Assembly: GCA_905178155.1 (NCBI GenBank) | Contig: CAJINV010000001.1 | Coordinates: 15,810,142-15,874,141 of the forward strand | Direction: 5' to 3' | DNA length: 64,000 bases | Source of the DNA: Amoebophrya sp. A120 | Lineage: Eukaryota; Protista; Dinoflagellata | Shown here: in pieces, positions 27,175 through 58,729 of the stretch | How the letters are laid out: the number at the start of each line of letters is the position of its first letter | How positions within the stretch are numbered: position 1 is the stretch's first letter | Position numbers and translations under genes: made by a program | Notes under the pieces: generated by a model | Database searches by the model: none | What the model was told of the DNA's origin: nothing | The model's input: the letters and a program-made list of their open reading frames with translations, nothing else

Positions 27175-30100
27175 TCACTCGGGCGGTGGCTCGGTCTTCC
27201 TGGACTTGGCTTGCAAGCGGAACAGCGTCTCCTTGTGGACTTGACTCGGGTAATTGCGGTTGTAGATGGGCATGTTCACGATGGATACCATCATCGGCTC
27301 ATAGGGCGGCGCCAAGCTCACTTTCCGCTCTGTGTTCAATTTTTCGGGAAAGGCTAGATGCGGTTGATAAAAAGACGCACCACTTTCATTCGTACACATC
27401 ATCACGAAGAGAAGAGGAGTGCCTTTTTGATATAAGGCAAGCAAAAAAAAGCAGTACTTTTCGCCGCCACCCTCCACATGTTGCTGCCGTCATCCATGCT
27501 CTTGAGGGAGTTGGAAACCGGGGCTGCGTCCTCTTCAGCCAAAATCTCCTGTACGAGCCCACACAGCACCACGTCTGGCAGAGTACCATCGCCGTACACA
27601 CCCTTCTTCTTTCGCTTAGAAACTGCGGGCTCACGAGCTTTAGCCTTCGCCTTTGGCTTCGCTGCTGTTGAGAAGATATGAAGACAATGAAGATATTGAA
27701 ATTGATGTCATGATGTTTCAGCTTCGCATGCCATTGACAACATTCAACATCACAACGAACAAGTCAGCGAGTGGATCGCTGTGAACGTCTACGTCATCCT
27801 GTCGAACTCGAAGTTGAACAACATAAATTTACTTGCACCACAAGGCAACAATTGATTCAATAACACGTACATTTCGACTTGGCACCGCCACCGGCCGGCG
27901 CTGCGGCTTCGTGCTCACCCTCTAACAAAACTCCGTTCAATTCGTCCTCGTCCAGGTCATCTTCCTCGCTGCTAGCCTCGGACTCTTCGCTCTCTACATC
28001 CTCCTCCCCGGCTGCTGCCACGACGTAAGATGATGAGGATGACCCGCCGGTGGTTTCGTTTTGCTTTGCATATTACAATGAAAAATGCCCCCTCCCCATA
28101 TCAAAGCGGAAATCTGTGATGCAGATTTGTGGTCACAAATCAGCTTTGTGATGCTAGGAGGCAAAAGATGCGGACTGTAGTGCTGTCTAGTAGGGAAAGC
28201 CTTGCAGCTCCAGGATGACAGGAGGCAACTGGAAGTGGGAAACAGCATGACAGATTACCTGCAATTTAGGCCGCAGCTTCGTCTCGTGGCCTTCTAGCAA
28301 TACAAGTAGATTTGTGTACTCAAATACAGCATCACAAATTCGCGCATCTTTCGTTTCCGATATGGGGTGGGGGCTTTTTTCACTTTGATATTGCACTTGA
28401 TGATGATGCGGTAGCTGCTGCTTGCACAAAACTGGGCAGTTTCGTTCGATCTGCCATCTCTATCGCGCTAGAGCTAGAAGATGTTGCGTTGCTGGAGTGG
28501 TTTGCTAAAAATTCTAGGTCAACTTCCTCCGTTGCGTTCTTGGAACTGCCGGATGGACTGCTATCCGGACTGCTTGTGGCGTTGCTGGAATCTGGGGCGC
28601 TCGCTTTGTGTTGGCCCTCCCCTAACGCTTGGGTATCACCTGGTCCATCGACTGTATTGTAGAAACCAGAAGTAGGACCAATTTTTTTTTTTGCAATATC
28701 ATCGAAATGGAGATCAACCAATGGCAATGCCCCAATTAATTCATCACTTTGTTTCTGAGCACATTCCGTGCGGAAGCCTTTGCTTCTATCAATTTGACGA
28801 CATCTATCGTGTACGCGTAAGAATTCCTGTACCTCGTTTCATCTGCATGTGTCGCGCGATTGCCTCCTCGGCGTTTAAATTTTCGATCGGGGGCTGATCA
28901 CTGACCATCATTGCCGCGGGGTTTCGTCGGTACGTGCGCTTGTAGGTGGAAATGTCACTGTGCTTTTCCGGCCGGCCCTCGATCGAACGACGCACGTTCT
29001 CGACATAGTCTACCGTCCGGGCGTCTAGTGGCGTCAACTGGCACAACATGCCGTTCACGTCCACGATGAGAAGTGCCTGTTAGAAAGATGTTTTGTAACA
29101 TAGACGCGCAACACTTGGCTATTGAGGCCATTTTCGTAAACCAGGTTTTTCAAGTTCCCTCAAGCTAAACCAACCAATGGCCACTGTCTTTGTCATTTTT
29201 GCGCTTCGACTTTATTCAAATCGCCGTACCTGTTCCTCCGCCACTCCAAACGGCAGCTCCCCGGTGATCAGGTTCGGCAGGGGTCGTTCGAGCGAGTCGC
29301 CTCCGAGAAAGTTCATACCGGCACTCATGGTTTTGCTCATCATGCTGCTTTGCCCGGCCATGTACCGGGACCCTGCGCCGCCCGGCTGTCCCGGTTTGCC
29401 CTGATCCCGCTTCTGTCTTGCCGGCACCAGCTGGCAAATCCACGCCCGGTCACCGAGTTGCTTCAAGATGTCGTACTTGGTCTCGGTGGAGTAGGTCATG
29501 AAGGTTCCGAGGTCGCCTCGCAACATGTATCAAAATGAAAAATCCCCCCTCCCCATATTGAAACGGAAACTTCTGTTGCTTGATTTGTGTACACAAATCA
29601 GCCCTGTCTTGCAGCGAGGCACTACAGGCAAAGCCTCAGCCTGCGTAGGGGTGTTTTGTTGTAGGCTCTTGGCATACGAGAGGCCTGCCATGTAGGCGAA
29701 ACAGCATTACAAATCGCCTCCCTAAGGCGGCGGATTCTTTGGGTTTGCCTTCTTGCAAGACAGATGTGATTTGTGACCTCAAATCCGCAACACAAATTTT
29801 TGCAAACATACCTTTTCGATATGGGGAAGGTGGATTTTTCTTCTTAATAACATGTCGAAAATCATCATACAGAACACGGTCAAAATCGCGAGAATACCCA
29901 ACGCGTCGCCCAAACTTGACAGACCGACCTCCGCTACGGAGGTGAAAAGCAGAATCAGGTATCTGTCGTGGTGTGTTTACTTGAGTTCATTCTAATATGT
30001 TGATCATTTCTTGAACATGCAACCGAAAGTTTGCAAACAACGCCGTCTTCATCTGCGTCAATGAATTGAAAACTAAACTTCGAATTCGACATAGTATTGA

Positions 30101-31181
30101 TGTCTGAAAATAATACGTGCCAGCACGTAAAGAAGTACATTGATCGCAGCAGCAGGTCCACAACTCGGGTAAACCGGAACAGCACCGGGACGGAGAAAGC
30201 TTGCGCCACCCAGAGCGAAAAGCAGGACATGAAACACGTGTAGATGATCAACCCCAAGCTCTTCGAGAATGCGCAGACAAAGGTGATGTACATCAAAGCC
30301 TGAAATGGCGAATTGTACACGTGTCCCAGCTGAACCGCCTGGGCCAACGCAATGGCAGCGCAGTCGTCGCGCACGGTGGAGTGCACCACTTTGTCGTCGT
30401 TGAAGGTCACCGCTAGGACGGAGCTGTAACCTGGAATGCGATATTTCTATGATCGAGGACTGCAAAACATTTGATTTCGAAGTGGTTTACTTGCACTGAC
30501 CCTCGACTTTTTACAGGTTCTTTTGCAGCAGGATGCATATGGATATGTAGTTGCTCAACAAATAAGTGATAAAGTCGTCAACCTCCGCACAACTTACCTT
30601 GCCGCGCAGCCTCGAGTTGCAGCACGAGCTGTTGCATAATCCAGGTTCGCATGGGCAACACCGTCGCCTTGAACAGAAAGGGGTCCTTCTCCAGGTTTTC
30701 CGGATTATCGCAGACGTACTCTCGGTCGAAAAGGTCCACAAACCAAAAGTCAAACTGCTTCTCTACCCCGGCCAGGACCAACGCCCCCGTGATCGGGTTC
30801 CGTTCTACGAAACCATGGTAGTAACTGAAATGAATAGTTCGAAAAACAGACTGTGGAAGAAAATACTTAAATGGATCATCAGGATACCTGTTTCGAAGGA
30901 ACATCAACATCGATACACATGCAGCGACATGCAGATCCTGGTAGCTAAAAACATCAAAATTTAAAATTTCTTTACTCCGGCGGCAGCTGAATCGGTGCGA
31001 GAATGGTGATTCTGTATTTGTCTTTGTAGGCCTCGAAGTTTTCCATGATCCGGGGAAGCACCTGATTCCGATTGTCCCAACATTGGTCCGCGGACTTGCG
31101 AAAACGGAGTAACTCTTGCTCGAACTCTTTCTGCTTGTCCTGGTTCACCATGGAACACGACGAAAGCGACTTCTTCTCCAT
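27175..31181 (-). CDS. Hypothetical multi-pass membrane protein interrupted by two introner-like elements
   Basis: Exons join in frame through seven GT-AG introns plus removal of elements 29528-29849 and 28071-28390. Hydrophobic segments include ALMYITFVCAFSKSLGLIIYTCFMSCFSLWVA and GDALGILAILTVFCMMIF; the C-terminal region is acidic and Ser-rich. The true start may lie further upstream. Confidence 0.72.
28071..28390. mobile_element. Introner-like MITE, family A (320 bp, 5-bp direct repeat TTGCA)
   Basis: Left end TATTACAATGAAAAATGCCCCCTCCCCATATC versus reverse complement of the right end TATCAAAGTGAAAAAAGCCCCCACCCCATATC (27/32 identical). TTGCA lies at 28066-28070 and 28391-28395. Removal restores ...SSSSA|KQNETTGG... 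Confidence 0.9.
29528..29849. mobile_element. Introner-like MITE, family A (322 bp, 5-bp direct repeat ACATG)
   Basis: TIR TATCAAAATGAAAAATCCCCCCTCCCCATAT versus TATTAAGAAGAAAAATCCACCTTCCCCATAT (26/31). ACATG lies at 29523-29527 and 29850-29854. Removal restores ...FCMMIFDM|LRGDLGTF... Confidence 0.9.
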
Positions 31182-32522
31182 CTTGGGCGAGGGTGGAGCG
31201 GTGAGCTGGAACGCGAAAAATTACGAAGAAGTTCGTCTTTATTCACAAGAAGTCTCCTCTTGAGTGAAGCCCGTGGCGGGGTGCAGGACGTAGCACAATG
31301 AAGACTGACAATCAATAGGGCGTCGCCGTAGACGTTTTTCACGCGACGACTGAAGAGTAGGGTGTTTCTGCTTTGATGCCTAGAAGGAATCGTAATTTGC
31401 TCCAGAGGTATTCTTGGAATCGACGGAGACGAGTGCTGCAAAAGGACGGAGCCACTCACATCGTCATTTTATGGTTCTTCTAGTGCTGAGGTGTCACCAT
31501 TACTACTTAGGGTTGAGAAGCCACTCTATCCTCGGAACATGCATTCAATAAAATTGTCACATATCGTATGCACATGCAGGGTATCATACCGAATTCAAAT
31601 TTCTAAGGTAAGTGCGCACACTGTAGCCTTGCTGCTTTTCAATTTATTTCAATCAACGGGTGCTAGCGTCACACATAAATGTACTCGACACAAAAGCAAC
31701 TCTCTCACTTCGCCCTCGCTCGATTTTTTCGCAATTTGGATATCTTTTTGTTACGAAAGCGTCGTATCAATGTTCACTCCACATGCTCACAAAAATCGCT
31801 CGTCCAACGGTCGCTCGTCCCACGAAAGTCCTTAGCTCAGCTCTCACTCCTACAACTCGGTGTGATGCAAAGAAATGCGATGACTAGTCGTTCGGTTCGA
31901 GTATCGGTTTCGACAAGGACAATTTGATTCTCCTGTCATATAAGTACTGCGATTTCAGTCGAACGAAAAACACTTATGAAGAGGATGGACAATGTTAGAC
32001 TAGGGCAAACGAGCATAGCCTCCGAGTCCAAGTCGACAGACTTCTTTGACTTATGTCAATAGCATCATAAGGAGCGAATGGAGAATGATGTTCGTGTATG
32101 CTGATAAGTATTTTGCATTCTACTTGCAAGCGAGTTTGTTATGCCCCGGGCGTCTGGGATCAGAGCCTGTGATGAAACTGAACTATTGAAACTATGCATG
32201 GTGTCAAAATGCACTGATAAGATGATGGTCTCAGTTACAGTTCTGGCGTTCGTTCTTCCCCAATTATATTCGAGGTGCTTAAAAAGTAAAGAAAAAAGGC
32301 GCAACTTGAAAAAATGCTCAGGACCAAAAAAGTGTACATTTTCTGTGCAGATGTCTTGACGTACAGAGACGAACTAGGTAAAAACTTGTCGACATGGAAG
32401 TATACGTAAATTCAACTGCAACTGCTAATGCGCATGGGGTAGTTAGTACACATACATTAAAAAATCGTCACCATCGCGAAACGAGTGAACAACTTTTGTA
32501 CATTATCCTGGCGCAGCACTTC

Positions 32523-35500
32523 TTACCGTGCGTCGTTGTCAACGCGGCTCGTGACCGAGACAAAATCGCTCGGCTCTTCTTCGTCTCCCGATTCGAAAAT
32601 TAGAGTCCTGGCAGATGCCGAAGAACCTGCAGGAGCTCCGTCGTTGCGCAGTGTTAATGCCCCGCCGCCGCCCTGTGGTGTGTTCGAGGAAGACGCTATC
32701 GACGGACTGCGCCCCGGTTGTACAACTAGTGAGGATCCGCCAGTGGGTGTAGTATACGTCTCTTCCGTTTCTAGCTGCTCCATCGGCTGAATCTGGCTCA
32801 GTTTTCGATTTTTTCTTCTCGCTGGAGACGTAGAGGTACTAGGCCCGGTTTGCTGGCGCGGCAAAGACGCTGAAGAAGTAGTACCCGCGTTCACTGGGGT
32901 AGAGGTTGCGTTAGTTTTGCTTCCTGCGCCGCTTCTTGTGGACGACCAGAAGTTTTCCGAGGAAGAGGATAAGTTGGATGTCACCGCCAGAGAACTGGTC
33001 GAAGACCCGCCTGCAGTTCGCGGTCGCTGACTTGAGTGTGATGTCGCTCCTCCTGCTGGCTGTTGCTGCGAGTTATGTCCGACAAACGGTCCAGCCGCTC
33101 CGAAGAACTGTTCCATCAACGACTCCCCCTGCTCGCCGGTGCTTCCAGGATCGGAATCCCCCGGCAGAAGTCCTCCGTGGGGAGAAACTACGGACGAGTA
33201 CTTGCTTCCAGTACGTTCGTTGACCTCATTCGAATTATCTGTAGTCTCATGCGACGCTGTCGTTCTTGTGACGTTATCGCGTGCAGGTCGGGTTGTTGTA
33301 CTACTGCTACTGCTACTTCTAGCTCCGTCTACCTCCGACTCGCACTGCGGTATTTCGCCGTCGCGTTGCAGCCGATCACAAACCTTAGTGCCATGATGGT
33401 TGTTGCGAGAACTACCCTGAACAAGTTGTCTACTTCCGCTATCTGTATTTGCTCCCGTAGAACTTGAAGAACTACTGCTGGAGGAAAAAAAGGCGTTGTC
33501 AGTTGTGCTCGAGGACTCTCCTGCTGCTCCTACAGCCTGACCTGATCCTGAAAACGTACCCGCGATGGCCCGTGCCAAAGCGGCCTTTTTACTGCTCGAC
33601 GACGGAGTGGACGATACTTGTTGAAGCCCACTACCGTGGTCGTGCTTAGGTAGATATGGATGCGACGCTGCACTGATCAAGACTTCACTACCTCTTATGT
33701 CCTCCTGTAACCAATTGCACGGCAGCTTTCCTCCCTTACGTGGTGGTGGGGCAGTGCCAGCAGTCGCACTCTCTTGCAGAAGCTGTGTTGACGTTGTTGC
33801 AGGAAGGTCTATTAGCTGCGAGCCGCTCGTCCGAGATGCTGCTGGTTCTTCGGTGGCATGCGCTGCTGGATCTTCCTCTTGGCCGCCTGCAAGAACCGGG
33901 CCTGTTTCTACTACTGTTGTATCATCTACTTGCTCGTTGGCAGCTGCGATTCCACCGTCAGTGGTAGTTCCGTCGCTATTCAAGTCGGTAATCGCCCTTT
34001 GCTGCCTTGCAGCGATGAACTGTGGATCTCGCAGTGTGCGGCTTTCGATGCACCGTAGGAATTCTATGTCCGAGTCGCTCTCCTCAGGCAACCGCGGCCG
34101 CGTGTGAATACCGTGGTAGATGTCGCGCAAAACGTCCCCCGAACTCGCTTCATCCTGCCAAAAATCGTTAAGCGAAAGCGCCAGGCGAACGGGAGGAAAA
34201 GGTAACGAGAGTGGGCGTTGGTTTCCACCTGTTGTACTACTCATGGAATCTTTACTGTCTCTTTGCTCTACGGTAAAATCTGTCTCCGCATCGTTGTCGG
34301 AGGTACTATTTCCCCTTTGTCTACACGACCGCGTATTGAGGTTTTCGTCAACGTCGTCGAGATCGTGGCCAGAAGATCTACTTCCTCCAGATGCCTGGTT
34401 GACTGCCAGCATGTGACTCGGGCTGCACGCAGCTCCTCGACCATTTGGCGGGAAAGAACTGTTGGTCCTTTCAAGCTGGTGAAAAAAACCTGCGCTGCTT
34501 GTCCCTGTGTTGTCGTACAAGTCCTCACTTAAACCACTCGTCCACAGTCCGGTAAGAACCTCTTCGTGTTCAATCGTGGTGCTTCGCGACTGAATATTTG
34601 GGCCCGCGTTCCTCGGTACGTTCTCCCCTTGATCTAAAGTAGCAGCTCTGTTTCGCCGCGGCAGCACGTTCCCCGCCCAGTTTGCGATACAGGAGAGGCG
34701 CGTGGCGCGCGCCTGGCCAGGTTCGTCTTGATCGGTCGCTTGTAGTTGTTGTGCCCCAGCAATGTCGTTATTTCCGACCAGTTGCAGCCCGCCGCCTTGT
34801 TCGTCTACTTGTTGTACGCCGGCCTGGTGTCCTTGCGCCGCGCCAACACCCCCACCTCCATCTACAGGTAGCCTTCTGCGTGCAACGGTCGGTGACCGTG
34901 CGGGAGAAACAGGATTGGCGGTGTCAAAAATTCCGCCGCTGTTCACTGCACTGCTAGAGTTCTCTAAAACCGTCGGGCCATCCTGCGAGAGGACAGCAGC
35001 ACCACCACTAATACTTCCAGCACCCTGAAGATCTGTACTAGACGCGGAACCCGCTCCGTACAAACCGGAGAGTGTTTGCACCAAGCTCGGCGCGGAATTC
35101 GGCGTGATGCTCTTCAGCATTTTCGAACACTTCGCCAAAATCACCGACGTCCTGGTTGGGTACGATTTCGCGTAGGCCCGCTTGATTTCGTCTGTAATGT
35201 CGCAATACCGCAACAACTGCGTCGGGGACATCCGCGCCCACTCGTCCTCCGCGACGATCCCGAGCTCGTCGAACGCAAAATCGGTACTGAACACCGTGAA
35301 CGGCGTGATACTATTGACGCCCCGTGGCCAGAAGTACTTCATCGCTATGGCGTTCTCAAACGTTACATTCTCAACTGTTACATGATTTTGTGCTGCAAGA
35401 CTAGCACAGGTGAGAGGGAGAACCTTGCGCGTCTTGCATTACAGGTTTGATCCGGATTGCAGTGCTATTTAGCCTTCCGAGAATTTGTCATGCGAAGCAG

Positions 35501-38179
35501 CTTGATCGTCTGGCGGGTCATCGTCATTTTGCATGACAAATCATGTAACAGTTGAGAATGTAACATTTGAGGATCCCATAATCGTGGGCCAGAAGTTCGG
35601 CCACGCGTCCGACGTGGCGGCGCCGTTCGCGCGGGCGGAGAATATTACAATGAAAAATGCCCCCACCCCCGAACTTGAAAGCATTTGTATTGCAAACCTT
35701 TCCAAATGAAACATTCGCGCTTTTGCATCTATCAGCATCACAGGTTTTCAATCGTGAATAGCAAAAATTTGTATTGCAAAAGGGCCCAGAAAGAGCGGCA
35801 CTTGTCATGCAAGCGATGCGATATACGCCTAGACTCTGCATCAGAAAGATCCATACTCCTTCCATGCATGACAGAAAGTTTTCATTTGGAAACTTCGCAT
35901 CACAAACTTTGCACTTTCAGGGGTGGGGGGCACTTTTCACTGCAATAGAGAAGGCGACCAGGCCTAAGCCGAGCCGGAGCCTCAGCATGTCCTGGAAGGA
36001 CAGGGCCAGGGGCTGGGTCGTGAAGGTAAACATGCGAATTTGCCGGCAGGAACTGGAGATCAGGTCGCACAATTCCCTGACGTTATCCACAAGTTTTATC
36101 CGCCGGAGACGCAAGTGCAGCAACCGCTCCGGGTGGTCCAGTTGGGAAATCATGGTGCAGATGTCGCTCGCGGAAAGCGGAGGGAAGTCGTTGGAGGTCG
36201 CGTGACCCAGATTGCAACTGGCCAGCTGCACGCTCCGCAGCTTCGTGCTGCCGCACTTGAAAGAGATCTGCTTGCGTCCGTTGTCGGCGCGGAAAGCGAG
36301 AAACAAGTGCTTCAGGTTGTACGCATGAGTCAGATCGGGGAGCGTGGTTAGCGAGTCGACACACAGCTCCTCTAGCAAGCTGAGGTTGAGCCACTTGAAA
36401 AGGTTGTCGGTGGTAACCTGTTGGTAGTGTAGTTTTGTTGCACATGAAAAAATCGAAGAGAAAAACGTACTTAAAACAACTTTTAGAACATTCATGATGA
36501 TCCACGCAAAAACGAATCAGAATTATCAAGAACCGCAGTACCTCCGGCAGGATATTTTTGCGCAGCTTTTTGCTCATGTCGAGGTTGATTTTGAAGTGTC
36601 GGAGCTGGTGGAAGGGTCGGACGTCCATCACCAGATTGGTCAAACACAAGGAAACCACGTGCTGGCGGTTCTGTATCGGCATCCACTGGTCGAACTGATC
36701 CTTCGTAACTAAATTCGGTGCCAACCGCAAGTGCGCAATCCGCCTCTGCTCGTAGAACTCCTTGCAGGTCATCGCCAAGTGGATCGCATCTTTCAAGTCC
36801 AGAAACTCCGACAAATGGTAAAAAGGCAACTGCCACATCTCCGGACCCTTGGTTACCTCCTCGTCTCTAAATTCCTCATCGGAGGTTGTAGAGAGGAAAT
36901 CCTCCGACTCATCGTCGTAAAAATCTAAATCGTACTTCCCGTCCTCATAAGCCTCTGCTGCGCCGGCGGATAACATATTTTTGTTCTCAACGTGGTGCAG
37001 GTCATCCTCTTCTTCGCAACTGGAACTGGTTGCGGCAAGTCCAGAGAGCGTTCGCTCGAAGCTGTTTTCCTCGGGTCGATGCGCCGTGGCATCAAGGGCT
37101 CCGACGCCGCTGTTTCCTTCTATCTTTTGATCTTCTTTTTGTGCTGACAAGTTGTGACTCGTCACTGCCTTGTTTCCCTTGTTTGCCCTAGTAACTGCTG
37201 GAATATCAGCGAGCCGTAGTTCCGCACTACAAGAAGACGCAACACATGGACGATTGCAGTCGAATTTATTCTTTGCGCCTGCAACCGTGGTCGCGACACA
37301 GGAGGTTGTGCAGTGCTGCTGCTCCTCCTGTTGATCCGTTGTTATTATTTCGTTTTCGCCCACCCGACGTTCGTTATCAACTTCAGAACCAGTGGCATTT
37401 CTCCTTTGCTTCGACAGTCGTCGGCTCATTCGCCTGCTTCCTCCTGCGCCTGGAGGACGTCGACTTTCTCTGACCCTTACGTTGTCACCATTACTATTCT
37501 GGTCGGCCCGCTCCGGAGAGTCTACTTCTAAGCAGTCTTTCCGGCGCACACCCGTACTAACCCCGAACAAGCTCTTCGCTGTGCGCTGCAGGGAAAACGT
37601 GATCTTCCCCATCGTACGGGCAGAGGGCGGGCTCTCCAGCGGTTTCTTCATAGTACTGCCAAACAACCGATCGAAGAACTTCAACTTCCTCGGGGACTGG
37701 CTCGCGGCCTTTTGCTGCGCTCCCGCTCGCCTACTTCTGCTCCCACTACGCCTGTTGACCGCCCGAGGGGGCGGAGTTGTGAACAAGTGGTCTTCTGCCG
37801 CAATCAGCGGCTCAGGCGGAGGTGGGCCTCGACGGACGACTACTTGTGCTGTGGTTATTTCCTGTGGCAGAGAAGACGAGCGCTGTTGTAGCGGTGTGCT
37901 GTAGATCATATCGGCGACGGGCGAATGAAAATTTTGGCTCGGCGTGTGATTTCCGAAGTCATGTTGTCCTCTTTGACGAATGTCATCCGTTGGTGTACTC
38001 ACCGTCAGATCGAAGCTCGTCGAAGTCAGCACGAGCGCATTTGAAGGTGGCCGGTCGCTTGTTGAAAACATGCGCCGCTCTCCTGAACCGCGATCATCCT
38101 GCTCCCGGTTTTCTTCTACCGCGCCGTCAGCCGCGTAGCTCCCCTGCTCGTGGTCTTGTTCCACGAACATGGTACTCAT
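32523..38179 (-). CDS. F-box-like / leucine-rich-repeat-like protein with long Ser-rich disordered termini, interrupted by two introner-like elements
   Basis: F-box-like WQLPFYHLSEFLDLKDAIHLAMTCKEFY is followed by LRR-like LxxLxL units (LEELCV, LKHLFL, LRSVQL, LLHLRL). One GT-AG intron (36418-36541) plus removal of 35643-35947 and 35346-35580 joins the pieces to the 939-aa ORF 32523-35342. Confidence 0.7.
35346..35580. mobile_element. Introner-like MITE, family B (235 bp, 43-bp TIR, direct repeat ATCGC/ATCGT)
   Basis: TATGGCGTTCTCAAACGTTACATTCTCAACTGTTACATGATTT versus TATGGGATCCTCAAATGTTACATTCTCAACTGTTACATGATTT (39/43). Flanks are 35341-35345 and 35581-35585. Removal gives ...NFWPT|MKYFWPRG. 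Confidence 0.9.
35643..35947. mobile_element. Introner-like MITE, family A (305 bp, 5-bp direct repeat GAGAA)
   Basis: Left end TATTACAATGAAAAATGCCCCCACCCC (first 22 nt identical to the 28071 element); right end reverse complement TATTGCAGTGAAAAGTGCCCCCCACCCC. GAGAA lies at 35638-35642 and 35948-35952. Removal gives ...GLVAFS|ARANGAATS... Confidence 0.9.
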
Positions 38180-39708
38180 CTTCGGCACAGCCAAGTAGCT
38201 GTTTGTTCTATCTACGGCGTCGAAAAATTCATCCTTTCTCTAGCTCCCGGCTCCACCGGCAGAGGCGCAGGAGAAAACAGCTCTCCGCTGCGGCGCTTCA
38301 TTTTCTACACTAGCTACTTTCTGCCGCGGCCAAGCTCTTCTACATGTAGATATGGGTATACGTCACGGGAGGAAGCATTCGCGACACCGGGGCCGGGGGA
38401 TCACCTAGAAATAAACTTCTGAAGATGTAGGGTAGGCGTATATGAATTAAAGCCTTGCTTGCTAAATCGAGAAAACATAGGATTTCGCATTCGGGTTCCT
38501 GTGGGATCTGAAATAGAGATAACAGACAGTGAAAGTCATGGTAGTTTCGAATGAAAGAAGTACTGAGATGGTTATTTAGATGTCGGCTGAAAAAACGAAA
38601 AAAACCGAGGAGATGATGGCACGACCGAGGATGAGAGATGGCGATGCTGAACGATTGTGCCAGGAGAAGGACGACCTGCTGCCACGATAACCGACGGTTT
38701 TGTTATTTGCTTCATTGTTCTTGATGCTGCACGGACCGACGAATTCTGGTTTTGTATCTTTCTAATGTACGTGGCTAGTCGTTGAACGTGTACCTGTACG
38801 AGTACGGAAAAAAACGAACGAAGAAACGAAGATCCTTTACGAAAAAAAGAACGGACAAACACAGTACATTCAGTGGTCAACACTGTAGTTTCTCCGCGCA
38901 GGTGGTCCCGGACTCGGGTACTATCCGTGGGACTAGAGAGTAAAAAGATGTAGAAAGTAGCGTGGTCGGAAACAATGGTTTGTACAAAGCATCCCTCATC
39001 CTCGCGTAGCTGCGTTCCGTCCGTGCTTCCTACTACCGTCTGATGCTCTGTCTAATATCCCTAGTATTGTAAAGTCCTATTTTTTTGTACACGTGCATTT
39101 TGAAAACCTTAGAAACAATATCGTCGGAGCACTCTCGTCGGTCCGGTAATTTTTCAATTTTAGCGCGTGGTGCTCGTCTTCTTGGTTCTGTGCAAGGTCT
39201 GTGGATAGGAAATTTCTGGTCCATAGTGTCTATGATCCTGCTCGGTAGACACGACTGTTTTGCGAACAAGAGGTGTTAAAGCGTCAAGATTTTTACCAGG
39301 TTTTACTAGTGTACTAAAAAGTCTGATGATGAAACGGTGATGAAACATGAACAGCCTGCTGTGATATCTGCTAAAAATGGGTCAATTACAGACTAACACC
39401 AATGCAACCTCGTCACGGTGCTAAAACTGCTATATCTGGATTACAACGAGCTGCGGTCTGATTGTCTGATTAAAAGGTTGTCAACAAGATTCAAAATTCA
39501 GAGGAACGTCAACTGCTAAACGGTTGTTATAATGAAGTCATAGTCATCCATAAACAAGAAAGTCAAGAAAGTGTGTAAAGACGGGTGCTCTGGTACCAAT
39601 AGTTTCGCCCTCCGCCAATTATGCTCCTCCTTGTTGCGCCCGGAGAACGGTGGAGAAACTTGACAAAAGGTTCAACATTTTTCTCCCTGCTGAAGCTGTA
39701 GAAACAAC

Positions 39709-41843: not shown

Positions 41844-42110
41844 CTATTCACTCGGACGCCCCAGATCGAAGGGATATGTGAGTGGAAAAAGTAAAACAAC
41901 GCGTGCGATGCTAGAATCGAAATTCGCTGCGTGATTTCCTGGCCGCGGGGCTACCGCAGTAACTACAGCTCGCACTTCTTCGTCGAATATTCCGTGGCCC
42001 GCTTTGACATTGAAGGGATCCCGTTCCTGGCGCATGTTGGAACGCCCGCGGAAGATATCTTCACCTTCGTCGTCTAGAGGGGGGGCATCATCCGAGAAAT
42101 GAAGTCGCAT
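41844..42110 (-). CDS. Possible first exon of a short hypothetical gene
   Basis: ATG-initiated 88-aa ORF on the coding strand (MRLHFSDDAPPLDDEGEDIF...). Downstream exons could not be resolved. Confidence 0.3.
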   Translation of the reverse strand: MRLHFSDDAPPLDDEGEDIFRGRSNMRQERDPFNVKAGHGIFDEEVRAVVTAVAPRPGNHAANFDSSIARVVLLFPLTYPFDLGRPSE

Positions 42111-45467: not shown

Positions 45468-46107
<640 letters not shown>

Positions 46108-49518: not shown

Positions 49519-51565
49519 CTATAACGCCCGTAGGTGCTGCACGCGGGTCGGGGAGAACAGCCGGCCCTTGATGGGCACCCCTTTCAAATGCTGGAACTGA
49601 CTCCGGTACAGAATGGCGTCGCATTCGTGCGCGGAAAAGTGATTCGATCGCAGCACCTTTCGCGCCAGCAGTTTCACGTGCGCCATGCACTCGTTTTGCG
49701 GCAGGGGGACAAAGTATTCGCCAATGTTTTTGATGCTCTTCAGGAGGCGGTGGTTGGCTGGATTATCCAGACTGTCTGGGGTATTTTCTTGTTCGTTGCC
49801 TGCCCCGCCCTCCTGCCCAGTGGTGCTGGTTCCCGCGCCTTGCGCAAATGCTGCTGACGTCCCCGATGCAGAGGTGCCGGTGGCTGGGGACAGCTGGTTC
49901 TGCTGATTTCCATCGACAGAGAAGCCACCGTCGGGCTTTACTTTGCTGTTCGAACGGCGGAAAAAGAGCGAAGTTTCCCCGCAGAACACGCAGTCCAAGC
50001 CCGTGACGCGGAGCAGTGGCAGGACGACCGGGCGAAAGATAAATTTTCCCCACATTACACTCAGAGTGCCTTCCTCCTCCGACGGCTCGGCCAATATGCG
50101 AATCAGCGTCTCGCGCAGCTCATTTGTGGCCCGGTGTACCGACTTCTTCAAGCTTCGCAGCAACGAATCGTGGCGCAGATCGTTCTCGCCATGATCGCCA
50201 GAAGTACTATCCTGCTCCGTGGACAATGGATCGTCCGGATTCACGAAGTCCAGCACTGGCCGCAGCACCTCGTGTAAAGCTGCCGACACCGCAAGAAACA
50301 CCGAGGTCCAGCTTCCGTCGGATTGTACGCGCTCTTTAGAAGGAGCTCCTGCTGATGTCGTAGTACTTCCAGTAGGGGTTGCAGTTTTCGCGTTTATCTT
50401 CCCGTCGGCTATTCCCCCACTCGACGCTAATCCTGCAAGCTCACCGTCCTCGGTGCCGGAAGAAGTAGCACTACTAGAGGCAGAACTACCCGCTTTGTTA
50501 TTTTTCCCGCTATTGTTCCCACCCTGCTTGGAGTCTTTCCCCTTCTTCTTCGAGGTATTGTTATTCTTTTTGTCTTGCTTGGTCGATGCCACGGCGGCGA
50601 CCGCTGCTACGTCGTCGGTCTCGGTTGCGCTGGACGCGGTTCCGTCGGCGTCCGACGCGGAGGTTGAGTGATTTTCGGGATAGATTTTCTCAAAATCTAT
50701 CAACGCTGCGGTCTTCGATGTAGCAGTCGATTTGGAGGAATTCACTTGAAGCGAAGACAACGGTAGGCGCAACAGCAAATCCCGGCACGCTCTGATTCCA
50801 TACTCGTTGTTCCAGTAAAGCCCGACAAGTTCGGCTCTTTGCTTGTCGGTCAACGCACGAATCACCTGCTCCAGCTCCGACGCCATGCCGTCGACCTGAA
50901 TTCATTTCATTCCAACATTCAGTCTACAATTCAGTGCGCTGCCGCTGCCGAAATGCTAGCTTCTGCTAACTGAAAATAAAAGCTACACAAAAACTTCTGA
51001 GTGGATTTTCCGTTTTCGATTTCATTCTTTCATCAAGCATAGAAGTTGAAGTACATCAAGGACAATCTACCAAGCAAAGCATCGTACGAAAAAATATGCT
51101 GAAGACTACTAGTACCTCTTCCTGCGGAAACGGCATGTCCAACAGATTGATCTCTTTTGCGTGAAGACAGAGAATCCGGTCGAGCCGCGCTTGGTTGCGG
51201 TCCACCTGAGAACCCCCTCCCGTGCCGAACACCGCCGCATCCTTGCTCGCGAGTTCTTCCGGCGACAGCCGGTACTCGTGTATCAATTGATCGGCCTTGT
51301 CCGTCTCCCCAGCCGCCTGCGGGGACTCGCGCAGCTTCTTCAGGCGGCGTTTCCTCAACTTCCGCCACAGCTTCGACGAGTCTAGCAGGCTGGCCTCAGA
51401 GGAACCCTGTTGTTCCGCATTCAAAGCTTGCGCTTCGGCCTGCTGGGACGCAAGCAGGTAATCCTCTAGGTACACCGAGACCGTGAAAATGATTGCCAGC
51501 AGAATAAACATCCACCCGATCCAGCTGTGCGGCCAAGAATTGAACAACCACGCGATCACGTTCAT
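49519..51565 (-). CDS. Hypothetical protein with an N-terminal transmembrane anchor, 2 exons
   Basis: MNVIAWLF...WMFILLAIIFTVSVYL; the exon ending PFPQEE joins VDGMASELEQ of the 455-aa ORF via a GT-AG intron. Confidence 0.7.
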
Positions 51566-51724
51566 GATTTCGTTCGAAGTGAGCAAGCGAGAAACCGAAG
51601 CAAAAAAACCCAAACAGAGAAAGAAAAAAAAGCCTGGAAAAAGCGACTTTTTGTTTTTTAAATAACGCTAGATTTGTTGCTTTGTACCCTACGGTGTATT
51701 AAGGTCGCGCCCGGAGGGCGATAT

Positions 51725-53015
51725 TGGTAACCAAATGCGTGCGCGAAAATCTAACCAGCGCGAAGGCCCACCAACCTTTTTCTAACATCGCCGCGGCCCG
51801 CGCCGCGAAAGCGCGGCCCTGCGGGCCGCGCTTTCGCCGCGCAGCCGCCGCCAGAAACGAGAAAAAGCACCATTTATTTTTAGTTTCTAGATTCCCACTT
51901 CTTCTTCTTGGGCGGACAACTACTGTCGCCCGCGGCGGCCCGCAGGCTCCTGCGATAAGCATTGAAGGCGAAATCCGGTCTGCTATTGCGCAGCGGGGCA
52001 TCCTTTCTCGCCCCCTGCATGACAAACTGGCCACCTGGCCAGGAAGATATGTGGCCGGGGGGGGGCAAGCCCCCCCCGGACCCCCCCCATCCTCCTTCGC
52101 AGCGGGGCATCCTTTCGATGCCCCCTGANNNNNNNNNNNNNNNNNNNNNNNNNNNNNNNNNNNNNNNNNNNNNNNNNNNNNNNNNNNNNNNNNNNNNNNN
52201 NNNNNNNNNNNNNNNNNNNNNNNNNNNNAACAAGGTAGCCTTTTCTGAGGGCCACTATGCCGTCCCGCATAACGTTCTGCACGAGGGCACGCTGGCCAGG
52301 TAAAATGCATGAATTTCAAAAAGTGACGCGCTTCTGTTTATTTCCGGCTGGCCTTTTGGGCCACCCAGATCGGGCTTTTCCAAGCGGGAGAAGGGTTCCA
52401 GTTTGCGACCTCAGAGAGGTCGAAAACCGTGCCCGTGTGACACACCTCCACAGGCTTGATAATTGTTTTTTCTTCGCCCAATCCCGGTGGTATGGGCCTG
52501 CGGAAAATTTTGCGAACCCCTTTTGAGCGGCAATTTTCAAGCGGCTTTTGCTTTTTCACAAAAAAGTGACATTTTCAATTACCAAGCGGCTTCCTAGGAC
52601 TGGAGAAAATCGGTAAATTTTGTCGGCCGCTTGTATGCTGCGAAAAATTGCATTTTTTCAACGCTTTTTTTCAATTTTCAAGCGGCTGGAGCTGCCCGGA
52701 GGTGACGCGTTTTCCGCTAGAAAACCCTTCACACCATCGGCCCTAGCCGAAAACGCCGCGCTCTTTTTTCAGATTCAGACCGGGCGGAGCTGCAAAAGTG
52801 CTCTTTTTTACCCTTTTCCCACTTGATAATTGCTGTTTTGGCTGCTTTCGATGAAATTCCCAGAAATTCTGCCCGATTCGCTTTCTGAAGGCAAAACACA
52901 CTTGATAATGCCCGATTTTTCCACCGATTGCATACCCCCGAGTTCCTCCCATATGGTAACGGCAAAGCCTTCGCGCTGCAGCCTTCGCGAGCGCTTGCGC
53001 ACGCTTTGGTTACCA
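51725..53015. mobile_element. Putative non-autonomous DNA transposon bounded by TIRs and spanning an assembly gap
   Basis: Left TGGTAACCAAATGCGTGCGC...CAGCGCGAAGGC versus right end reverse complement TGGTAACCAAAGCGTGCGC...CAGCGCGAAGGC. Internal direct repeats at 51989-52007/52098-52116 and 52531-52546/52672-52687. No clear target-site duplication. Confidence 0.6.
52129..52228. other. Assembly gap (100 N)
   Basis: Run of exactly 100 N, typical of a placeholder for a gap of unknown size. Confidence 0.99.
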
Positions 53016-53102
53016 GATGACTAGGATCTTATTGACGACGCGGCAGTGACTTACTGTACGGAATCAGAAGTTAGTACGATTTGCCTTTGAGTCCATGTTG
53101 AT

Positions 53103-53169
53103 CACGCGAACATATTCTTTCTTTCCATTCATCACACGCGAACATATTCTTTCTTTCTTTCTTTCTTTC
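53103..53169. repeat. Short local duplication plus TTTC microsatellite
   Basis: CACGCGAACATATTCTTTCTTTC occurs twice (53103-53125 and 53135-53157) and runs on into (TTTC)n. Confidence 0.7.
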
Positions 53170-53478
53170 TGTTCGTGCCAGGGCTTGGCGTCAAAGGTTC
53201 AAGGCCCTAAAAAATCCTCTTGGTCCACATTTCAGATTTTTCTCTTGATCATCGAACATATTCACATCACCGACATTGATTACAGTTGCGAAATATTGCT
53301 TCAAATTCTTTACAACGTGCGCCAACGCGGAACAACGTGCGCATCATCCTCTTCGCTTGTTTTTGTCGAAGCGACAGCTCTCGGAGTGCCAGCGCACAGC
53401 CGGACAAAAACAATAGCTATAGCAGGTTGTCTTTCTTTCCCTACAACATAGTGCTCAACTGCCTCGAAGATAATCCGT

Positions 53479-54081
53479 TCAAGTCATCCGCATTTCTGCC
53501 TTCACTGGTTTCAACCGTTCGACCGTATCAGCGTAGACCTGCCTCCGGTCAATGTTTCTGGGTAGTATCAGTTCGTTGTAAATAACTTCGGGCGTCCTGG
53601 GCTCCGCCCCCGCGTACCAGTGCCGACCGGATTCCAGCAGGTAATTGGTTGTGTCGATGCCGTTGTAGTCCCGCGGCTGCACGGAATTCCAGACCACCTG
53701 CTGGTCACTCGCGTTCACCGGGCCCCCGAAGGGGTGCGAGGCGTCCGCAAGTAACAAGCTGCCCATCGGTCCGCCCTTACCGTTCTGGTTCCAGGGATGG
53801 TTGATGGAAAAAGCGGGGTCTCGCGTCCGGAAAGCCTGGTTCCACATCCCGACCTGGTCGTACTCCGGAATCAACGCCGCCGCCGACTTTCTCGCCTCCT
53901 TTCCGCTACTTATGAGAAAACTCGTTCCTCTCGCTGCATGGTGTTGCGTTCGGCGAGGACACCCGCCGGGGTTTCTACTTCGGGGTGCTGGTCCCGGTAA
54001 GGACGCTGATTTTGCAGAAAAAACGAATTGGTCGTCATTCGGAGACAACCAGCTTGTCAGAAGCTGTGATATGTGGCCCAT
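53479..54081 (-). CDS. Hypothetical protein (200 aa)
   Basis: ATG-initiated, GC3-rich single-exon ORF on the coding strand. No family recognised. Confidence 0.6.
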   Translation of the reverse strand: MGHISQLLTSWLSPNDDQFVFSAKSASLPGPAPRSRNPGGCPRRTQHHAARGTSFLISSGKEARKSAAALIPEYDQVGMWNQAFRTRDPAFSINHPWNQNGKGGPMGSLLLADASHPFGGPVNASDQQVVWNSVQPRDYNGIDTTNYLLESGRHWYAGAEPRTPEVIYNELILPRNIDRRQVYADTVERLKPVKAEMRMT

Positions 54082-54909
54082 GCTTGAAAGTTGAAACTAC
54101 GCTTACTTTCGGCAACCCTTTATCGCGAGGAATCCGCGTCCAAGGAAGTAATAGCTGCAGGAGCAGGTGTGAATAAAGCACCTTTTCTTAATCTTCTAGC
54201 CCTGTTCACACAAAAATCCTGGTTACAGGCCTAGTGTGGTCGTCCGCACGGCGCGTTGCGATTACTACGTAAACCTTTTTCGAATTCGCAGCCAAACGGC
54301 ACTAGTGAATGAAAGCAAGGTACTGCGTAAAAAGCGATGTCGATTGTACGTCAGCGACGACTTAACAATGCAGTTGCGACAACGACAAGTAGCGGAGCGA
54401 AGGAGCAGTCAAACGAAAGGCGAAAACTTCGACTTTCGAAATTCTTCGACGACGGCACAAAAAAATCGAAGAAGAGCGAAACATACAAGAACGATGATGA
54501 ATGCATAGAAATAACTACGACCTGCCACATTTATAGCTGCGGAACACCCAACGCCTCTCCCTCTACGTGCCGCCCGTGTCGCGGTCAGTGCGTACTGTTG
54601 AAACTCTCATCTGCGCTTCGTTTCCTTCCGCGAACTCAGTCACTTGTTCATTTGAGGCGTCGCTGTTTAGATAGAGGGAAAAACATTCATTCAGAGCGGT
54701 TTTTTGTGATATAGAGATTACAGATTCATTTTGGTGGAAATGAAGGAAAATAACAAACCCCAGAAGAACTGTAGGCACAACAGCCAGGAAGAACTAAAAC
54801 ATCCGCTGCGGCATTCATCGCTTTCGAGAACGACAAGTGCTTTAATTCAAGTATGGAGAATCGGAGGGTCATCGTCGCCTTCCAAAAGCGCGAAGACCCC
54901 TCTGCGCAG

Positions 54910-56074
54910 TCACTCCTCTGGGCCGTACCATACTGCGTAGAGCGCAAACCCCAGAAACACGAACCCACTGCCCAGCGTGACTTGTCGCTCCGAGATGTGC
55001 TTTGCGAGCATTTTTCCCCCCGCTATTGCAACGGAGGTGCAGACCGCGTGGCCGAGTATCTGATGAAAATTAGATTCTTCCAATTAGCAGCACACCCAGA
55101 CAACAATAGACGTAGTTCTTTTGGGTGAAAGACATCGAGCAGGTGCAAAATCTGTTTCAACAAAAACAAGTAGACTTCCAGGACAACAAATTCAGTACCG
55201 CTCCAACGACGATGCCCCCGAAGTCGCGAGCCGCGCCCATGGCGACGGTTGATACTTGCGATTTGTCACCCCACTCCGCTAGAAAAGTCATCGCGAATAT
55301 TGCACCCACTACTTGCAAGACGCTTTTTTTCTGTGTTGAGATTTGCAGATCAATTCAACAACAACACTAGTAAAGCATCGCAAACCCGACAAGTAGAAGG
55401 AAAGAGCGTCGGTCCTTGAAACGATCTTTGCTCGCAGAACACAAACCAAGATACGCCAAACCAACTAGTATTTCTTACCTGCTTGAGTGTCTTGTCCTCC
55501 TTAAGTTCCTTTTCGGTCTCTGCCAATTCCTCCGAAACTCCCACACCCTCGCCCTTCGCATACATGTCCAAGGCATCCTTTATGGCGCTCCCGCCAAAAA
55601 AAACGAAGAGTAGTATCGCGCCCCAGTGTGATAGTGTTGGAGAAAGTAGGGTAGGTACCAGAAGCCCGATGGCAGCTGTCGTGGAGTGTAATGGCGTTCT
55701 TTTGATCTTCCGGATGAATGTACGTAGCATTCGGATGAATGGCCGTGACTTTCGTCGAAATAGAGCAAAAAACTTTAGCACCAGGCAGCACGTAGCATCT
55801 AGAAATTTCAGATAGTACATACGGAAACGAAACGACTCGAAATCGTACAAATTACACAACCTGTACCTGATAGTATCGTCATAGTAGCAAGCGCTCCCCA
55901 GCAGCCTGCGAACACGTGTATGGCCTTCTTTGATATTGACAGAATTGCGGCGATAAAAAACGTGCGATCGCCGATTTCCGTTGCCCCAACCATTACTAAT
56001 GAATGCAGAAACGCGCTCCAGAAGTGCCCTTCATGGGGCTCCGCAAACACGTGTGGTTCCACTGTACCGCCCAT
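54910..56074 (-). CDS. GDT1: GDT1/TMEM165 (UPF0016) Ca2+/Mn2+:H+ antiporter, 4 exons
   Basis: Both family motifs are present: ATEIGDRTFFIAAILS and FLAEWGDKSQVSTVAM, followed by ILGHAVCTSVAIAGGKMLAKHISERQV. Three GT-AG introns. Confidence 0.92.
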
Positions 56075-56979
56075 TGTTTCTGAATGCTATGTGAGAAAGA
56101 ACTTATTTCACTTGTATGTTGCGTATGGTGCCGCGCACTTGTTATTTAAAAAAATTCACTTTTTTCCGAATTTTTATTTTTTCAGCAGGCCTTACATAAT
56201 CCGAGGGGTAATCGAGTTTAAACTTTTTGCAAATTCAGAGCTGCTACAACCTACTATATTTGGGCTGATGCTGACGCGCGTGTCCCAGACTGCGGAGCGA
56301 AATTCAATTTTTTTTCGAAACTATGAAACAGAAACACTCGCCAATGAAAATTTGTTCGTGAGAGCTACTAATGTGTCGCCTAGTAGTTCTTTGTACTTTA
56401 GAGCTACTACCATATACAAGCCAGGGTCACAACTTTTGACGCCAACTTTCTGTGAGTCTTTCTGTTTGCCCATATTGTGCCGCTGAATTTTTATTTTTCG
56501 AAAAATACCTGTTCGCGAAGAATCAAGAGGGACAGACACACAATCGAGGAACGCAACGCAACGGCAAAAATCAAAAATGAAAAGCGCTTTGACATGTTTG
56601 ATCCATGCACGTTCGACCGTCAAGTTTCATGTTTATCTCGTGGTCAATCAAGAAATTCATCAAATTTGATTTGAACACGATCCACGACCTCGCCTGAAAT
56701 CTACAAGACCAATCACTCACTAAGAAGCTGGTTGCAGTGAGTGGCGGGACAAGGACTCGCAATAAATTGCGTTCGAAACACTTGAGACGTCATCTGTTTC
56801 GAGTCACTTTATGATTCATACATTTTCAGTTCGGTGGAACCATAAAGTTTAGCATCCATTTGTTCTTTCCGGTGGTTGCAGGATGAAGTTCATTTTCACG
56901 GCGAAACAATAAAGAACTTCCATTCTTTTCAAAATCAAATTCCAGCACCAGGTACTAGACAAGATGATCCACCAGAAAA

Positions 56980-58729
56980 CTAGAGACCCGCTTCCCTGAG
57001 GGACCTTGGGTTCATATGTTCGACTTCGTCCTCGTCGGTGCTGTCGTCGCCGTGCTGCAAGTGCTCTTCTGGCCCCAGCGTCCCGTGGTCCCGGCTGCGT
57101 TTTTCGTCGTCAATGTTTTCCAACACCTTGCGGCGATAGTAGGCCAGAAAGATGAGGAAGGCCATGATGCAGAGAATGGCCAAAACCAAGCACGTCCAAT
57201 TATCCACAGAAAAAAACCCATCCACATCCATTTTTTGCATGACAAACACGTGATAATCACGTGTTTGTCATGCAAAAAATGGATGTGGATGGGTTTTTTT
57301 CTGTGGATACCAATCCACGATCTCCTCCATTAGGCTCACTTTGTGCAGTTTCAGCCGCGTCTCCCCGGGTCGCAGCCCCAGTCGCTTCTCGAGTTCCGAC
57401 CCCGGCCGCTTTCTCCAGTCCACGGTCCACGTTATGAGAGTGCACAACTACGCCTTCCTGCTTTGAAGGACATGGACAGCAAGACAAGCAAGGGCAGAAA
57501 TTTTTGAAATGTGGTTTTCTCTATCATGGAATGAGAAATCTACGTGTGAATTTTTGAGGTGTTTTCAATTTGTCACGCTGACCGTCTTTCAAGCCAATGT
57601 GTAGCTGTGGACCTCGACCCGGGCTGTCGGTGATGGTGTTCGTGTTGGAAATGACATTCGCATTTTGCATTACATTCAAAACTGGTCGCGAGTGGTGCAT
57701 TCTCATACACTCTTCTTCCGTGCCATTTGTACGGTTCCTGCGAGGTGGACCAAGAGGTGTCTGCCGGGGAGGCACGCCGGGGGCAGAGTCATCGTTTTCC
57801 CCGGCACTGTCCCACGGTTTTACGATCTCCTCGTCACCCTTTCCTTTTCCTTTTCCGATGATGGGATGATCGGGACCTCCATAACCGTCACAGCACGACG
57901 ACGAGGACGACACACTACCGGTGGGCGCAGATGAATTCTCGGAATCTCCTGGTTCTGCTTTTGGATTTGACTCCCGTGGTTTTTCGTGATACAACGGACG
58001 GAAATAACCTCTTTCTGCTGCTCCTCCTTCCTTATTACCTGCTTCCAGCGGATGATTTTGTTCACTAGACGAGGTACTCATCATGATGTTTTCGACGGCG
58101 TTGGAAATGGCGGCTCCTTGGTCGGCTTGTTTTTCGGTCGTTGAGTTATCCGTAGAAGTACTTCTAGAGCCTGTTGCTCGCCCGCTTGTACTACTGGCAC
58201 CACTCTGTGGTGCCTCCTCCAGCACAGCTTTTGCCTGTTGTAGCTGCTTCGGCCTTCTCGGCTCTTCCTCCTGTGCAGTCTGGTGCAGTGCATCTCCTGC
58301 GCCTTCTGGCTCATGCGCATGCTCCATCTCCTCGAGGAAAACACGACCTGTTCGCTGCTTGCGTTGGGTAGATCTCTCTATCGGGCCTCTTGCGGACGCG
58401 CCTCCAGAAATTTTGTCCACGTCGGCTGTAGAATCCACGACGAACGCGACCGGGGATTCTTCAGTTGCCGCAACATCTTTGGAGGGAAGATGAGCGCTGG
58501 TTCCAACGGTTTCGAAAGCTGGTAACTGCCGTATCGCTGCTACATTTAACGCTTCAGTGTTGTCTCCCGGCTGATCTTCATGTGCGTCTGTACTCGTAGT
58601 GCCTCCGGGTTCCACTTTGGAGATCATTCGTGGTATGTTTACCTCTTGGGAATTCCCCGCTGCTGCTACCACAAGCGCGTACAGGATGGGCCTTGCAACG
58701 AGAAGCGACTGTTGAGGCGGTGCCATCAT
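56980..58729 (-). CDS. Putative type I membrane protein with a low-complexity ectodomain, interrupted by a palindromic introner
   Basis: N-terminal hydrophobic ILYALVVAAAG and a long disordered region, probable GT-AG intron at ~57448-57674, then ...SLMEEIVDW|TCLVLAILCIMAFLIFLAYYRRK after removing 57201-57309 plus one CCAAT. Confidence 0.65.
57201..57309. mobile_element. Introner-like element, family C: perfect 109-bp palindrome with 5-bp direct repeat CCAAT
   Basis: The 54-bp arm at 57201-57254 is the exact reverse complement of 57256-57309, separated by a 1-nt spacer. Ends are TAT...ATA. CCAAT lies at 57196-57200 and 57310-57314. Confidence 0.93.

Follow-up and report, generated by a model that had tools for sequence, protein, structure and literature searches.

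Introner elements are already known from the dinoflagellate Amoebophrya sp. A120, in which Farhat et al. (2021) reported 29,850 copies belonging to 1,954 families (PMC7789003). As described in the main text of that study, these elements have inverted repeats that start with TAT, followed by seven variable bases and a run of three or more A, are bounded by direct repeats of 3-5 nt, form a hairpin, and are RNA-supported, non-canonical introns with no internal transposase; both the removal of tens of thousands of non-GT-AG introns and the nature of their mover are stated there as open questions. Here we analyze a 64,000-nt stretch of A120 DNA (the window), in which six such elements, E1 to E6, interrupt three genes. 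The window elements are like the published introners in organism, TAT ends, direct repeats, hairpin and loss at the RNA level. Since the A120 host, the TAT ends, the repeats and the hairpin are those described by Farhat et al., the elements are members of the published set of Amoebophrya A120 introner elements, and the phenomenon itself is already known, as an initial interpretation made from the letters without database searches (the sequence-only reading) had recognized. What is new relative to the literature searched is a shared internal motif and a strand-specific constraint on the element ends. Neither was met in that literature or mentioned in the main text of Farhat et al., which leaves the position of the borders unknown and reports no family-specific inverted-repeat motifs (PMC7789003); the figures of that paper and Roy et al. 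(2023, Curr Biol) lay outside the scope of the search.

Several other described systems are close enough to merit comparison. Gozashti et al. (2025) give 58 rows of A120 families, mostly classified as "TIR DNA, unknown superfamily" (TIR, terminal inverted repeat), which were handled one by one with automated target-site duplication (TSD) calls of 2-11 nt (PMC12130899). Similar lengths are found among these families (approximately 106, 150, 209, 234, 260, 278, 305 and 320 nt), the comparison being one of length. One of them, family 38, is entered in supplementary file 8 as "Ginger, 5-bp TSD, TA/TA termini" with Copia/Gypsy-like open reading frames (ORFs); it is about 808 nt long and, according to the paper's text, lacks Ginger termini and TSDs (PMC12130899). 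Transposon-derived introns without GT-AG have also been described in euglenids, whose non-conventional introns have pairing ends and TSD-like repeats (PMC11282704), and in the tunicate Fritillaria, where they are removed by an adapted spliceosome (PMC13326754). As these accounts describe them, the euglenid and Fritillaria introns have a junction consensus of their own (Y|R and AG-AC/AT), whereas both junctions of the A120 elements fall within a duplication of arbitrary sequence.

Elements in the window and their removal from RNA

All six elements lie on the minus strand, begin with TAT and end with ATA. E1 (28066..28395; element 28071-28390, 320 nt) has TTGCA on both sides, E2 (29523..29854; element 29528-29849, 322 nt) has ACATG on both sides, E3 (35341..35585; element 35346-35580, 235 nt) lies between the 5-mers ATCGC and ATCGT, and E4 (35638..35952; element 35643-35947, 305 nt) has GAGAA on both sides. 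E5 (57196..57314) is a near-perfect palindrome (57201-57309, 109 nt) with CCAAT on both sides, and E6 (57428..57712; element 57433-57707, 275 nt), in the same gene as E5, lies between CACGT and CACTC. The flanking 5-mers are therefore exact in four of the six elements (E1, E2, E4 and E5), with one mismatch in E3 and two in E6. The sequence-only reading had called E1 to E5, each with TAT and ATA ends and 5-bp flanking repeats; all five are real at those positions, the repeats of E3 proved inexact, and E6, which was exposed by a blast match to a fetched locus, had been overlooked. The TIRs claimed by that reading are also present: ungapped terminal arms measure 33 nt at 85% identity in E1, 39 nt at 82% in E2, 43 nt at 91% in E3 and 54 nt at 100% in E5, and the arms of E4 align over 71 gapped columns at 79% identity. 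Fold-back of E1 and E2 extends to approximately 100 nt or more, and for E1, E3 and E4 the transcript strand folds far better than shuffled sequences (z of -7.2, -9.0 and -6.6, with no shuffle equally good). The strict published end pattern (TAT, seven variable bases, at least three A) is found in four elements (E1, E2, E4 and E5); in E3 the AAA is shifted two places inward, and in E6 the A-run is interrupted. An Rfam search of the window gave no matches.

Canonical U2 ends (GT/GC...AG) are found in none of the six elements. As had been claimed for the first five, no equivalent register gives GT-AG, and only half-signals occur (GT..TG in E5, GT..AT and AT..AC in E2, CG..AG in E3, GC..AT in E1). 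A U12-type AT..AC register is present only in E2, and minor snRNAs are reported absent in A120 (PMC7789003). Excising each element plus 5 nt lengthens every host frame, and retaining any single element shortens the frame, including the three of length divisible by 3, so that the frame restoration predicted for E1 to E5 holds throughout. In addition, the A25 homologue (P0002) of the gene holding E3 and E4 is colinear and gap-free across both sites (54% identity, residues 447-897).

Four of the six elements are missing from mRNA to the base, each together with one copy of its duplication. Transcript contigs covering E1 to E4 were available from three runs of one study, X3 and X5 from one sample and X6 from a second, and these contigs omit exactly 325, 327, 240 and 310 nt at E1, E2, E3 and E4, respectively. 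The RNA joints are 28065>28391 for E1 (in all three runs), 29521>29849 for E2 (with seven ambiguous letters), 35340>35581 for E3 (four ambiguous letters, with no alternative letters listed) and 35637>35948 for E4. At the mismatched site of E3, the transcript-upstream base is retained, and the deposited protein P0001 fits that form and not the alternative. The records that skip the elements also lose CT..AC (that is, GT-AG) introns, and the contigs of X3, X5 and X6 are RNA-derived because these ordinary introns are missing from them. In X3, the depth of the bin over E2 (79.6) is fully accounted for by the exon part of the bin (39/284 x 579.4), which means that no E2-retaining contig is present at 99% identity, within a set of assembled contigs that drop rare forms. 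E5 and E6 are absent from the deposited protein P0003, which is the translation without both, making this gene-model evidence only; 114 and 280 nt, respectively, are removed in that model, and P0003 is compatible with the removal of E6 only when the transcript-upstream copy retains its first two bases. Thus, of the five junctions predicted by the sequence-only reading, four appear in transcript contigs and the fifth (114 nt) only through a deposited protein, and its view that the elements behave as non-canonical introns is supported both by these exact lengths and by the organism.

The same elements are present in DNA-like contigs. In run X1, which is DNA-like in that ordinary introns are retained, single-copy contigs enter the elements (records ending at 28097, spanning 28364-29555 and 29798-35368, and starting from 35921) and bear element junctions at an ordinary depth of 21-28, and 29, 52, 123 and 63 contigs depart exactly at four element termini into unrelated flanks. 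Excision at the DNA level in the life stage expressing the genes, as with the internal eliminated sequences of ciliates, would also yield element-free transcripts, and only a single DNA-like run was examined, with 15 of its 93 joints listed. Such excision is nevertheless very improbable given the single-copy junctions, and no element is skipped among those 15 joints. The Amoebophrya lineage is also not known to have separate germline and somatic nuclei. We are highly confident that the elements are RNA-level introns of transposon origin.

Larger sample of elements

A scan of a metagenome collection with the end pattern of E1, E2 and E4 provided 84 loci totaling 627,600 bases, partly overlapping, of which 80, as listed, share the record prefix JACKZZ01. 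When these loci were scanned without bias as to the ends, an exact 5-bp repeat accompanied 308 TIR candidates, 288 of which began with TAT; conversely, among 584 candidates starting with TAT, an exact 5-bp repeat was found in 288 and an exact 6-bp repeat in none (repeat lengths up to 10 were scanned). A dedicated detector returned 385 elements, or 384 after one false pairing (a 3,779-nt candidate in locus L018) was dropped, and its control gave 190 raw hits in the real loci compared to none in 257 kb of block-shuffled loci. Relatives of E1 to E5 occur in the loci at 79-96% identity, with E1 belonging to a cluster of 20 copies (closest copy 95.6% identical) and E2 to one of 34 (closest copy 96.3% identical), and no full-length relative of E6 was found there. 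Clustering sorted 390 elements (the 384 plus the six of the window) into 87 clusters. TAT-N7-A-rich ends are common to all of these, the TAT start having been a condition of the search. With TIRs, TSDs of fixed length, no coding capacity and many copies, the elements have the attributes of miniature inverted-repeat transposable elements. Density differs between the two samples, with six elements in the 64-kb window and approximately one per 1.6 kb in the loci, which were selected for holding an element.

The behavior seen in the window extends to the loci. Coding-like frames host 323 of 383 elements, and when the element plus 5 nt is deleted, the frame is open for 200 nt or more on each side at 173 of 383 sites, compared to 87-103 sites when 3, 4, 6 or 7 nt are deleted along with the element. 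Orientation relative to the transcript was tested in 17 families and showed no bias (smallest p 0.052). The gene for Rpb1 holds several elements, and their removal restores invariant stretches of the protein, even for a 972-nt copy (L006 3546-4517) that interrupts such a stretch and is removable in frame. One of the gene's GT-AG introns contains a nested element (L006 5043-5609).

Hairpins with short direct repeats are also the signature of template-switching artefacts of reverse transcriptase, and the apparent loss of the elements might arise in this way, in which case the ribosome would hop over the insert in the cell, every 5-nt duplication containing a full in-frame codon. The only RNA evidence consists of cDNA contigs, and run X9 has a 24-nt deletion between GGC repeats that is not in X3, X5 or X6. 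We consider this combination the least credible of the explanations weighed: no contig in X3 retains E2, and Rpb1 carries several elements. Ribosome hopping was rejected because mismatches at codon positions 1-2 fall inside the shared codon and do not avoid it (12 inside, 9 outside, expected share 0.6, p 0.83), and the take-off and landing codons of E3 and E6 are mismatched.

Shared internal motif and mobilization

The 8-mer GCATGACA was found in 74 of the 87 clusters, and a looser motif (TGTNDTGCW / GCATGACA type), drawn post hoc from the window elements, in 377 of the 384 loci elements plus all six window elements. Motif density is 12.0 per kb within elements, 1.6 elsewhere and approximately 0.2 in shuffles, and the 8-mer occurs in 1 of 17 canonical intron candidates. 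Copies concentrate 33-34, 41-45 and 72-78 nt from the ends; in E1 (28115..28336), for example, there are three inward copies per end, at 45, 77 and 106 nt from one end and 55, 87 and 139 nt from the other. The sequence-only reading had considered the families "otherwise dissimilar", a description that does not survive the presence of the motif in all six elements and of an exact 14-mer common to E3 and E5.

The motif copies may be binding repeats of a transposase, and as such they offer a handle for finding that transposase or another binding protein. Instead of, or besides, this role, the motif could be an RNA-binding splicing signal, as part of an improbable alternative in which the spliceosome would use some other or variable register, such as a start at the TAT or a cut in the middle of the duplication. 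The motif does change less than other interior sequence (0.018 versus 0.029 private changes per site), as a splicing signal might. Its strands are, however, used almost equally (259 versus 235, p 0.30), showing no sense bias, it is rare in canonical introns, and its clustering at set distances from the ends would be expected of repeated DNA-binding sites.

Because the families share both their ends and the internal motif, a single transposase is favored, and an enzyme of the integrase or IS3EU-like type likely moves them all. In a more specific version to which we incline slightly, one DDE enzyme of IS3EU/GingerRoot/Ginger type would bind at the GCATGACA repeats as well as at the TAT-N7-AAAA ends, cutting with a 5-nt stagger. 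Ends located without using positions 1-3 read TAT in 860 of 902 cases and TGT in 3, and so differ from the TGTNR termini of Ginger1 and Ginger2. Transib elements have 5-bp TSDs and CAC..GTG termini; the TAT..ATA termini found at all elements here are unlike these, as had been noted. IS3EU and GingerRoot have TA..TA termini and TIRs in common with the A120 elements (PMC10045372, PMC6839031), and the TNT..AYA termini of IS481EU also fit, though its TSDs are approximately 4, 15 or 25 bp long compared to 5 bp here (PMC10045372). All three carry integrase-like DDE enzymes, GingerRoot prefers GC-rich targets, and intron behavior is not mentioned for any of them in the descriptions consulted (PMC10045372, PMC6839031). 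The sequence-only reading had proposed one transposase for several families and a search for further TIR copies and for long copies encoding the enzyme. The shared ends and motif lend its proposal indirect support, and the search yielded 384 elements in the loci and no transposase domain. No autonomous element with the same ends was found in the 627 kb of loci, and scans of viral contigs with three TIR patterns gave no matches.

Terminal letters and mechanism of removal

The terminal TAT is constrained by the transcript strand, in that few changes are seen in the T and A of the 5' end or in the A at -3 of the 3' end, and the other letters drift. In 349 complete oriented elements, there are 0, 2 and 9 changes at positions 1, 2 and 3 of the 5' end and 1, 4 and 6 changes at positions -3, -2 and -1 of the 3' end. 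Over 960 ends, a post hoc comparison of position 1 with position 3 gave a Fisher p of 0.0006 for the 785 oriented by locus and 0.0003 for the 861 oriented. Further inward, the A-tract at positions 11-15 has no pooled strand asymmetry (p 0.51), and positions 9, 11, 15 and 23 reach nominal p values of 0.008-0.05, in mixed directions and among 27 tests. Transposition is blind to the transcript strand, and the asymmetry of the ends therefore points to selection on the letters of the RNA; because a strand-specific mutation bias would move both positions alike, such selection is the simplest reading. Pairing alone probably does not explain the constrained A at -3 either, since its replacement by G would preserve pairing (U-G).

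The constrained letters resemble those of ordinary donors. All 14 unambiguous canonical donors begin with GTA and have a loose fourth base; one Rpb1 intron, whose sequence suggests a GTAT donor, was left out of the 14. An ab initio GT-AG intron finder recovered none of eight known introns and was discarded. Ordinary donors read GTA, and a cut placed one base upstream of the element would give the similar start N-T-A-T; N|TA is therefore the donor that the spliceosome likely recognizes. The upstream bases that are kept, base 1 in E3 (from RNA) and bases 1-2 in E6 (from annotation), fit this register. In such a mechanism, the cut would detach the final base of the upstream duplication, which would open the intron as the N of N-T-A-T, much as in the local GTAT/GTAC donors; at its other end, the intron would take in four bases of the downstream copy and lack AG. 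The conserved A at -3 would serve as a putative branch point, at a distance set by the hairpin. We judge the chances of this combination to be even. The strand-specific conservation thereby turns an unknown border into a sharp prediction at mismatched duplications. The alternative introduced above, with another or variable register, draws on the fact that E3 and E6 require merely that at least one and at least two upstream bases, respectively, be kept, and on the legend of Fig. 3 in Farhat et al., where the sites are variable relative to the hairpin (PMC7789003). Mismatches between duplication copies are distributed over the five positions as 12, 7, 8, 7 and 14, which is not clearly uneven.

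Excision could also be guided by structure only, with an endonuclease and a ligase (tRNA-splicing-like or euglenid-like) acting at fixed distances from the hairpin base without the spliceosome, in which case the end letters would serve folding. The strong fold-back of the transcript strands and insertion in both orientations in the 17 families tested are in keeping with this, as is the absence of a GT/AG preference in any register: only 16 of the 249 oriented elements from the loci offer a GT/GC-AG register, and the duplications match the flanking exon in base composition, G not being in excess at any of their positions. No U1 snRNA has been detected in A120 (PMC7789003), and the non-conventional introns of euglenids carry TIRs and TSD-like repeats as well (PMC11282704). 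We nevertheless regard structure-only excision as unlikely. Changes are rare in the 3' A at -3, where a G would pair as well, whereas the 5' T with which it pairs varies freely; the T and A conserved at the 5' end correspond to canonical donor positions +2 and +3; and A120 has nearly all spliceosomal proteins along with U2, U4, U5 and U6 (PMC7789003). The suggestion of the sequence-only reading that the hairpin rather than the terminal dinucleotides defines excision thus holds in so far as GT/AG is not needed, and fails in so far as the terminal letters are conserved in a strand-specific manner.

Taken as a whole, the reading that we prefer has a somewhat better than even chance of being correct: transposase-less introners would be spread by one integrase-like, cut-and-paste transposase leaving 5-bp duplications, and the host spliceosome, assisted by the hairpin, would recognize a relaxed N|TA donor in removing them. 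Several results weigh against it. On the side of removal, there are no raw reads over any element (X9 reads end at 27988, and none from X10 or X11 aligned), and U1 snRNA was not detected (PMC7789003). The end asymmetry is post hoc and derives from 14 changes at 5' ends and 21 at 3' ends, and with the strictest orientation subset (332 ends, 10 changes) p is 0.33. G is not preferred at the would-be +1 base (0.30-0.32). Where the duplication copies differ, the direction of A/T-versus-G/C change leans toward the upstream one being free (28:13; 49:34, p 0.12), and codon usage gave no clear indication of which copy is kept. Canonical introns show only a weak signal for an A at -7 (9 of 16; uncorrected p 0.038, a level matched at -4). 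The assembly behind the loci may not be A120, as its best Rpb1 match is 86%, with elements up to 96% identical. On the side of mobilization, no transposase domain was found in 83 ORFs of long elements (Pfam; two sub-threshold matches only), the 186 long ORFs of the loci have host-type domains only and no transposase domain, and Farhat et al. report no transposase in A120 (PMC7789003). Finally, the duplications of IS3EU and GingerRoot are usually 6 bp, and here 5 bp (PMC10045372, PMC6839031).

If the preferred reading is true, the spliceosome works without its two most conserved intron letters, which would explain how transposons could invade coding exons, even those of Rpb1, at little cost. 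A stronger form, which we put forward only tentatively, holds that the mobilizer belongs to one undescribed integrase-like superfamily (TAT ends, 5-bp duplications and sub-terminal GCATGACA repeats), and that the spliceosome dispenses with the +1 G and the final AG, reading only U+2 and A+3, which the transposon end provides, and a branch A at -3 of the opposite end, with the cut fixed by the hairpin at four bases into the duplication. In that case, any insertion, in either orientation, would at once be a perfect intron.

Host genes and other features of the window

The first host gene (26543..31622, minus strand) contains E1, E2 and six GT-AG introns and has a 739-codon open frame when spliced according to the RNA joints; a Pfam search of two of its exon ORFs gave no match, and a profile-free search of an exon gave one weak match. 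The second (32067..38239, minus strand) contains E3 and E4 and encodes P0001, of 1660 aa. The third (56960..58798, minus strand, outer limits approximate) contains E5 and E6 and encodes P0003, of 451 aa, which has a hydrophobic stretch close to the C-terminus. Exon ORFs of two host genes are 100% identical to deposited Amoebophrya sp. A120 proteins.

Minor variation was observed in the first host gene. One of its GT-AG introns has two acceptors 12 nt apart (28640-28652), with X3 and X6 using one and X5 the other. Approximately 550 raw X9 reads lack 24 nt at 27881-27904, in frame and between the GGC repeats mentioned above, which may be an allele or a slip of reverse transcriptase. A 10-nt microexon at 27871-27880 was considered and rejected, as the length of an X6 record implies that 27871-28065 is contiguous and the X9 reads lack 27881-27904. 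The GT-AG introns at 29076-29229, 30429-30597 and 28638-28832 have 4-6 letters repeated at both borders, a feature reported for dinoflagellate introns.

An intergenic block at 51725-53015, spanning a 100-N gap, ends in imperfect inverted repeats of approximately 45 nt that start with TGG, not TAT; it has GC-rich hairpins, one copy of the shared motif and no clear duplication, and could be a longer element. In locus L035 (1290-2618), two ORFs match RNA 2'-phosphotransferase (Tpt1/KptA), a tRNA-type splicing enzyme, and this is probably an ordinary host gene. Elsewhere in the window, many exons with Ion_trans matches at 823-8630, where no TAT element was called, suggest a multi-domain voltage-gated cation channel gene, and a ubiquitin-conjugating enzyme gene with a GT-AG intron lies at 45471-46063.

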